Below are positions 53,863-54,122 of a DNA stretch of 64,000 nt, piece by piece. A program made the translations under genes and the position numbers. Every line of letters begins with the position of its first letter. Positions within the stretch are counted from its first letter, which is position 1. The stretch is from an uncultured Dehalococcoidia bacterium (GTDB lineage Bacteria; Chloroflexota; Dehalococcoidia; Lucifugimonadales; UBA3495), in NCBI GenBank assembly GCA_964502995.1, contig CAZCZB010000010.1:2364-66363 (forward strand). The letters run 5' to 3'. Under the pieces are notes generated by a model that was given only the letters and a program-made list of their open reading frames with translations, did no database searches and was not told where the DNA came from.

Positions 53863-53879
53863 AGAGGCGCACGGCCTCT
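53863..53879 (-). promoter_or_regulatory. Candidate SECIS hairpin for the C-terminal UGA of the glutaredoxin-like gene
   Basis: AGAGGC-CGUGC-GCCUCU begins 12 nt after the UGA at 53892-53894. Confidence 0.35.
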
Positions 53880-53882
53880 GAA

Positions 53883-54122
53883 CTAAAAGTCTCAAAAACC
53901 GCCTTCGAAGCCGATGGTAACAGCGCCGTTCTCCACGATTATCGGGGTGATTCGCTCGCCGCCCGACAACTCCAGCAACGCGGGAATCTGGTCGGGCTGC
54001 TTCGATACATCAATCTCCGTGTAGGCAACGCGCTGCCGGCGGTAGTGCATCTTGGCCTGCGCAGAAAACGGGCAGTCGGGATGCGTATAGAGGATGATTT
54101 CGGTTTGCTCTGCGGTGGTCAA
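53883..54122 (-). CDS. Glutaredoxin-like protein (CPFS active site), possibly a selenoprotein ending ...GGF-U-DF-stop
   Basis: IILYTHPDCPFS....Y..IDV....................TPII is a glutaredoxin/NrdH-like fold pattern. TTG start at 54122 has CAGGAG 6 nt upstream. The ORF-track stop is TGA and is followed by GAC TTT TAG. If there is no recoding, the CDS ends at 53892. Confidence 0.6.

Follow-up and report, generated by a model that had tools for sequence, protein, structure and literature searches.

A UXX-star family 2 glutaredoxin-like gene with a predicted C-terminal selenocysteine and a SECIS hairpin in its 3' UTR in a Dehalococcoidia genome

Results and Discussion

Organization of the locus

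We analyzed a 64-kb stretch of DNA from a Dehalococcoidia (Chloroflexota) genome, hereafter called the window, and focused on a small minus-strand gene for a glutaredoxin-like protein in which a TGA codon stands close to the end of the reading frame. An earlier note, made from the sequence of the window, had described an ORF with a CPFS motif that runs into this TGA and is followed by GAC, TTT and a TAG codon. This description proved accurate to the nucleotide, and the positions are listed in Table 1 together with those of the other features discussed here. Read on the minus strand, the gene begins with TTG ACC ACC, carries CCC GAC TGC CCG TTT TCT in its active-site region, and ends with GGC TTC GAA GGC GGT TTT TGA GAC TTT TAG TTC, after which a hairpin follows.

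Table 1. Positions of the features of the UXX-star locus and of related features in the window
Feature	Position	Strand	Details
Predicted sigma70-like promoter	54171..54199	-	-35 TTGCGC 54199-54194, 17-nt spacer, -10 TACAAT 54176-54171
Shine-Dalgarno AGGAG	54129..54133	-	6-nt spacing to TTG start; direct sequence reading
UXX-star glutaredoxin-like selenoprotein CDS	53883..54122	-	79 aa, in-frame Sec codon, TTG start at 54122
Cys17 codon of CPFS active-site motif (CxxS, monothiol-type)	54072..54074	-	sequence and alignment
UGA codon 77, proposed Sec	53892..53894	-	TGA in 81/81 sequences and three further family branches
Post-UGA sense codons GAC TTT (Asp78-Phe79), C-terminus of recoded product	53886..53891	-	GAC 53891-53889, TTT 53888-53886
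Second stop TAG, true stop	53883..53885	-	direct sequence reading
Predicted SECIS hairpin	53863..53879	-	stem AGAGGC 53879-53874 / GCCUCU 53868-53863, loop CGUGC 53873-53869
Intrinsic-terminator-like hairpin and T-run	53756..53787	-	between selenoprotein gene and recA; terminator scan
Promoter-like element of recA	53650..53678	-	TTGCTT, 17 nt, TATCAT
recX, recA	52013..53625		downstream of UXX-star gene
UGSC family selenoprotein gene	25635..26177	-	180-codon ORF
In-frame TGA of UGSC gene	25878..25880	-	

Relatives of the gene were found in 339 species, one genome per species being scanned, and the best 80 of these 339 loci were combined with the window to give a set of 81 sequences. These best 80 loci all come from Dehalococcoidia, SAR202 or other Chloroflexota MAGs, many of them from sponges.

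In the window and the 80 loci, the start codons are mostly non-ATG (TTG in 50, GTG in 27 and ATG in 4), and an AGGAG or GGAG sequence ahead of the start is kept across the homologous loci. About 55-60 nt 5' of the start, nearly all of the 81 loci have TTGCGT, a spacer of ~17 nt, and TACAAT, TAAAAT or TAGAAT. This conservation and the match to the consensus suggest that the corresponding element of the window is a promoter. The consensus scan tool that we used had missed this element. A 10-bp palindrome upstream of the gene, TGTACGTACA, was also considered as a candidate operator and was rejected, because it represents the extended -10 region of the conserved promoter and is palindromic in only three of the 81 loci.

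On the 3' side, a terminator scan detected, at 53787-53762, the hairpin and T-run that the earlier note had reported as a separate terminator. By a simple criterion it is present in the window only and in none of the 80 loci from other species, and it was therefore rejected as a conserved feature. Rfam gave zero matches in the region of the selenoprotein gene.

Assignment to UXX-star family 2

For profile searches of the 79-residue product, Cys was put in place of Sec. The product matched the NCBIfam model NF041211, 'UXX-star (seleno)protein family 2', over its full length (profile positions 1-71 of 71, the U-D-F tail included), with 112.4 bits against a curated equivalog cutoff of 100. The three-residue tail itself lifted the score from 105.2 to 112.4 bits and completed the profile. 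Above its cutoff of 66, the product also scored 101.2 bits with NF041212, an umbrella model for the 'Uxx-star family glutaredoxin-like (seleno)protein', which is the RefSeq family that the earlier note had named. Pfam Glutaredoxin (PF00462) was matched with 35.9 bits against 22.9.

Three membership features of NF041211 were found in the window protein, namely a score above the cutoff, a UGA that encodes the third-last residue, and a glutaredoxin-like fold. The gene is a clear member of the published and curated UXX-star family 2 and not a new family, and its novelty is low because this family has already been published and curated.

According to a recent review (PMC13188914), NF041211 is the family of Haft & Tolstoy 2025, and its Sec motif is given there as 'GxGU', which describes a single example protein and is not a curated criterion of membership. 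The residues flanking Sec are G-G-F-U in the window and G-V-G-U in a distant branch (database proteins P0084 and P0087), and the outgroup branch of NF041211 ending in ...HGVG-U-A-F agrees with the listed motif. The window branch resembles NF041211 in its full-length HMM match, its glutaredoxin-like fold, the placement of Sec as the third-last residue, and a SECIS that follows the stop codon. It differs in having GG[F/Y/T]-U-[D/E]-F and not GxGU, and in being placed directly upstream of recA-recX and not in a metal-transport neighbourhood.

With UXX-star families 1 and 3 and the HUGP/GUXX-star fusion (NF041114, NF047338 and NF045501), the window protein has in common the NF041212 model and the C-terminal Sec-x-x-stop, and its scores lie below the cutoffs of these three models (66.2 vs 72, 68.6 vs 97 and 57.3 vs 325 bits, respectively). 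Members of family 1 have two Sec residues, one of which is in a UxxT active site (PMC13188914), whereas the window protein has Cys in its CPFS motif and a single Sec.

Comparative evidence for recoding of the UGA

TGA is the first stop codon in all 81 sequences (the window and the best 80 of the 339 species loci), and exactly two sense codons separate it from the second stop in every one of them. The second stop is TAG in 60, TAA in 11 and TGA in 10 sequences. The first of the two intervening codons always specifies Asp or Glu (GAC 72, GAG 4, GAA 3 and GAT 2), and the second always specifies Phe (TTC 60 and TTT 21). When the 75 distinct sequences were compared position by position, +3, +4, +6 and +7 were invariant, the wobble positions +5 and +8 were variable, every position from +12 onward showed variation, and the 3-nt periodicity stopped at the second stop. 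Therefore, the coding signature reaches exactly two codons past the UGA. The earlier note had set against its own reading a pattern in which homologs end at GGF with varied stop codons and have no conserved x-x-stop or hairpin downstream. We observed the opposite, that is, a constant TGA, a conserved tail and a varied second stop.

More distant relatives were also compared. A farther branch ends in ...GNT-U-E-F-stop, and the outgroup branch, which has 47-50% identity, ends in ...HGVG-U-A-F-stop and has its own hairpin with GU at nt 23-25. The earlier note had suggested a check for homologs extended by three residues, with either Sec-x-x or Cys-x-x at the C-terminus; the Sec-x-x form (TGA) was seen in all of the homologs examined, but the Cys-x-x form was seen in none, neither a Cys form nor a Cys-x-x tail at the Sec position being present in 92 database proteins or 86 loci. 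A Cys counterpart is not required for a protein to count as a selenoprotein, and the word '(seleno)protein' in the NCBIfam name implies that Cys forms occur elsewhere.

We also considered whether UGA might have been reassigned altogether. This is excluded because TGA ends 13 of the 32 annotated genes of the window, including recA, recX and moxR, and because the loci of ten species have UGA again as the second stop, 9 nt beyond the Sec codon.

In the public databases, all 92 homologs are called as ending one residue before the TGA position (...GG[F/Y/T] or ...GVG). These entries (P0001-P0092) are 76 residues long, or longer through spurious upstream starts, and they are labelled 'hypothetical protein', 'glutaredoxin' or 'NrdH-redoxin'.

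A predicted SECIS hairpin beyond the true stop

A hairpin follows the second stop in all 81 sequences. In the window it starts exactly 12 nt past the UGA and 3 nt past the true stop, and is located wholly in the 3' UTR; both its sequence, AGAGGC-CGUGC-GCCUCU, and its distance from the UGA had been given exactly in the earlier note. When the U of the UGA is counted as nt 1, G23 and U24 of the loop are at positions 53872-53871. Of the 81 sequences, 80 have GU in the loop; it occupies nt 23-24 in 56 sequences and lies within nt 21-25 in 79. Folding of the single window sequence gave an MFE of -8.8 kcal/mol with z = -0.67, and 41 of 200 shuffles were equally stable or better. The stability of the window hairpin alone is not beyond chance, and the support for it is comparative.

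We aligned 76 distinct sequences with MAFFT and counted covariation for a five-pair stem. The stem is paired in 94.5% of the cells, compared with at most 67% in slid controls, and double-sided compensatory changes occupy 35 cells, compared with 9.1 in shuffles, none of 500 shuffles reaching 35. Four of the five pairs covary, and the three outer pairs were recovered independently by RNAalifold. The covariation of the stem suggests that the hairpin is a bacterial SECIS that may act through SelB.

In the fdhF SECIS of E. coli, G23 and U24 are the loop bases that contact SelB, and the minimal hairpin extends from 11 nt after the UGA. The window element is similar to the fdhF SECIS and the bacterial SECIS consensus in that it is a short hairpin 11-12 nt past the UGA with a small apical loop, and it has in common with them a loop G followed by U, with GU at nt 23-24 from the U of the UGA. 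It differs from fdhF in that a bulged U matching U17 of fdhF is not evident.

The earlier note had also called for a SECIS prediction on this segment. The bSECISearch model expects a loop of 3-9 nt, an upper stem of 4-16 bp and an MFE of -7.5 kcal/mol or lower, together with a G at loop position 1 or 2, the next base usually being G or U, and a distance of 16-37 nt from the UGA to the loop (PMC13188914). The hairpin of the window agrees with all four criteria of this model (5-nt loop, 6-bp stem, loop C-G-U-G-C, 18 nt to the loop, and the MFE given above).

The textbook position of bacterial SECIS elements is inside the reading frame (PMC13188914), whereas the window element is untranslated and confined to the 3' UTR. 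[quoted passage not shown] In both cases the SECIS follows the stop, but it was engineered there and is natural here. The Sec of mammalian thioredoxin reductase (Gly-Cys-Sec-Gly) is likewise on a short C-terminal tail beside the stop.

These data bear on an alternative in which the UGA simply terminates translation, the product is a 76-residue monothiol glutaredoxin-like protein, and the hairpin is an element that stabilizes or attenuates the transcript and has no part in recoding. All 92 database entries are annotated in this way, UGA is common as a stop in this genome, the stability of the hairpin as a single sequence is unremarkable, and the truncated protein still scores 105.2 bits with NF041211. 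However, an ordinary stop leaves unexplained why all 81 sequences have TGA at this codon when any of the three stop codons can serve as the second stop, why exactly two codons intervene in every case, and why the differences in these two codons are limited to synonymous changes and Asp to Glu. Nor does it explain why the periodicity ends exactly at the second stop and why GU is conserved at nt 23-24. We therefore consider an ordinary stop to be highly improbable.

A second selenoprotein gene and Sec use in the genome

The earlier note had named a UGSC locus as a second Sec candidate in the window, and a gene of this family with an in-frame TGA is indeed present (Table 1). It matches NF041046 over positions 1-146 of 147 with an E-value of 3e-32, but its 111.5 bits fall short of the equivalog cutoff (125). 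Homologs in three other loci, with identities of 91%, 35% and 30%, keep the in-frame TGA; these loci are L083, L021 and L030. In the window and in L083, the predicted SECIS of the UGSC gene has a 6-bp stem, CGUGCA/UGCACG, that closes a G23-U24-G25 loop. The UGSC and UXX-star genes have the same SECIS loop motif at the same distance from the UGA.

A scan of every TGA of the window for the SECIS signature gave five matches, compared with 1.8 expected, and only those in the UGSC and UXX-star genes have a coding context. The three extra matches (29273, 46986 and 51317, all on the minus strand) were rejected because the translations around them are out-of-frame junk. The scan also brought up a perfect 12-bp hairpin, TTGGACGACGCG-GTGT-TGCGTCGTTCAA, at 29236-29263 on the minus strand (about -23 kcal/mol with flanks). 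It is located between the dnaB and dnaC-like genes, in a gap of ~490 nt, and the frame around its TGA looks non-coding.

Searches for selA, selB, selD and tRNA-Sec found none within the 64-kb window and none in the ~1.2 Mb of sequence that flanks 60 related loci (20 kb each). The content of the window, free of sel genes, includes a nuo operon, eno, gap, DUF2298, dnaB and dnaC-like genes, recJ, folC, RNase Y and a TRAP transporter. There are no tRNA genes in the whole window, and its sole Rfam match is a bacterial large SRP RNA (RF01854, 136 bits) at 41463-41724 on the minus strand.

This lack of sel genes and tRNA-Sec in the window and in the flanks of the 60 loci would fit a UGA that is read by a near-cognate or suppressor tRNA (Trp or Cys), or one that is a relic left after loss of the Sec machinery. 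Several observations speak against such a reading, to which we give very little credence. The downstream element corresponds to a SelB-type SECIS in shape, loop sequence and spacing, and the unrelated UGSC gene shows the same signature after an in-frame UGA. In addition, selection on the tail and the hairpin has been maintained over 80 species, and an identical protein is found on 20 contigs. Finally, SelA, SelB and SelD are all present in each of the three Aplysina sponge bins nearest SAR202 (Slaby et al. 2017, Table S4). We infer that this genome encodes SelB and tRNA(Sec), and there is good indirect support for its being a Sec user.

The C-terminal Sec proposed in the earlier note is supported by the NF041211 match, by the TGA-two codons-stop arrangement in 81 of 81 sequences, and by the covarying hairpin. 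In our best explanation, to which we assign a probability of roughly 0.9, the locus is a genuine bacterial UXX-star family 2 selenoprotein gene in a Dehalococcoidia genome, and its UGA is read as Sec. The mRNA would be produced from the gene's own conserved sigma70-type promoter, and translation would start at the TTG at 54122. With the hairpin lying wholly beyond what would be the real stop codon, SelB would bring Sec-tRNA(Sec) and Sec would be inserted at the UGA. Asp and Phe would then be added before termination at the UAG (53885-53883).

Protein fold and proposed chemistry

The structure of the 76-residue core was predicted by AlphaFold2 with 15 homologs as input. The resulting model has a mean pLDDT of 85 and the order b1(9-13)-a1(18-30)-b2(35-38)-a2(43-53)-b3(61-64)-b4(67-70), followed by a coil of lower confidence. 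The best Foldseek matches were glutaredoxins and NrdH-redoxins, with TM values of 0.75-0.80. The matched chains are longer because they retain a C-terminal helix that the window protein does not have, and HMMER alignments to solved glutaredoxins end at residues 71-73, ahead of the tail. In the alignment of the family sequences, YTHPDC..S (S20), GER.TP and the glycines before Sec are invariant. According to the model, the 79-residue product is a minimal glutaredoxin fold without the C-terminal helix, and the tail, GGF-Sec-Asp-Phe-COOH, is short and probably flexible.

Based on this fold and on knowledge of the family, we propose that Cys17 and Sec77 may cooperate, either as a redox pair that forms a selenenylsulfide or as a pair of thiolate/selenolate ligands. 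The idea of a redox pair is drawn by analogy from the TrxR tail and from the cysteine that follows GG in monothiol glutaredoxins. Monothiol (CGFS-type) glutaredoxins have a second Cys after GG, as in the GGC of yeast Grx5. They and the window protein both have a CxxS site and a chalcogen residue just past a conserved Gly-Gly after strand b4, and this likeness suggests that Sec77 might have a resolving or partner role. On the other hand, the Sec is one position farther from GG than the Cys of CGFS-type glutaredoxins, and the C-terminal helix is absent. Because the HMMER alignments stop short of the tail, any equivalence of Sec77 and the post-GG Cys is tentative. The analogy with TrxR also has a difference, in that the partner Cys of TrxR is adjacent to Sec, whereas in the window protein the only conserved Cys belongs to the N-terminal CPFS motif, at a distance of 60 residues from the Sec.

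The completeness of the core raises the possibility of dual output, in which both a terminated 76-residue product and a 79-residue Sec product would be made, in a ratio set by the selenium supply. This would be compatible with a selenoprotein gene, which is our main explanation. The 76-residue core is a complete and confidently predicted fold, and at UGA, release factor 2 is in general a competitor of Sec insertion in bacteria. However, the strict conservation of the tail favours the 79-residue form as the selected product, and we regard dual output as conceivable but somewhat doubtful.

Linkage to recA

Directly downstream of the UXX-star gene, recA and then recX are found on the same strand in every one of the 79 species loci that were informative, the gap being 106-350 nt, and the branch of database protein P0077 likewise has recA downstream (L092). 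The upstream neighbour is variable, being moxR in 38 loci. The 20 contigs that encode the identical protein include a 3.07-Mb contig of the Dehalococcoidia MAG GCA_965243255.1 and ENA contigs of 3.7-3.9 Mb. Three ENA contigs of ERZ21830300 have the same order as the window, that is, TRAP dctPQM, NTP-transferase, moxR, the UXX-star gene, recA and recX. The HGVG-U-A-F branch (L088, L090 and L091; 47-50% identity) is not beside recA; upstream of it are a heavy-metal P-type ATPase (HMA/E1-E2) and a 50-residue YHS-domain protein, with transposases nearby. The recA and metal-ATPase settings mean that the genomic context differs among branches of one NCBIfam family.

recA has a promoter-like element of its own (Table 1), whose spacer contains GGAAC-N5-GTGC (53668-53656), and GAAC-N4/5-GTGCTA occurs in the equivalent spacer in 53 of 80 species. 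GAAC-N4-GTTC is a Cheo/LexA-type box, and the recA spacer element, which resembles it in sequence, may be an SOS operator. The UXX-star gene and recA have separate conserved sigma70-like promoters, and therefore their adjacency may represent old synteny and not an operon.

We also considered the stronger claim that GG[F/Y/T]-Sec-[D/E]-Phe proteins are a distinct, Sec-only and never-Cys subfamily whose place directly before recA-recX is fixed in at least 79 species of Dehalococcoidia/SAR202. At present we think this claim unlikely to hold.

Implications

The current understanding of UXX-star proteins is unchanged by this locus because the family has already been curated and published. The only leads that are mildly novel are that the window branch is strictly linked to recA and that it has Sec only. 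If the linkage to recA is functional, it would tie a selenium-dependent redox protein to recombinational repair or the DNA-damage response, a role that, as far as we have checked, has apparently not been proposed previously for any UXX-star protein.

The predicted Sec tail, which would be important for catalysis, is systematically absent from the public protein sets of an abundant marine and sponge-associated lineage. The locus also provides a natural, multi-species case of a bacterial SECIS that is located wholly in the 3' UTR with fdhF-like spacing, so that translation of the element would be unneeded. In addition, two selenoprotein genes within 64 kb, with one SECIS loop signature, mark this Dehalococcoidia genome as a Sec user.
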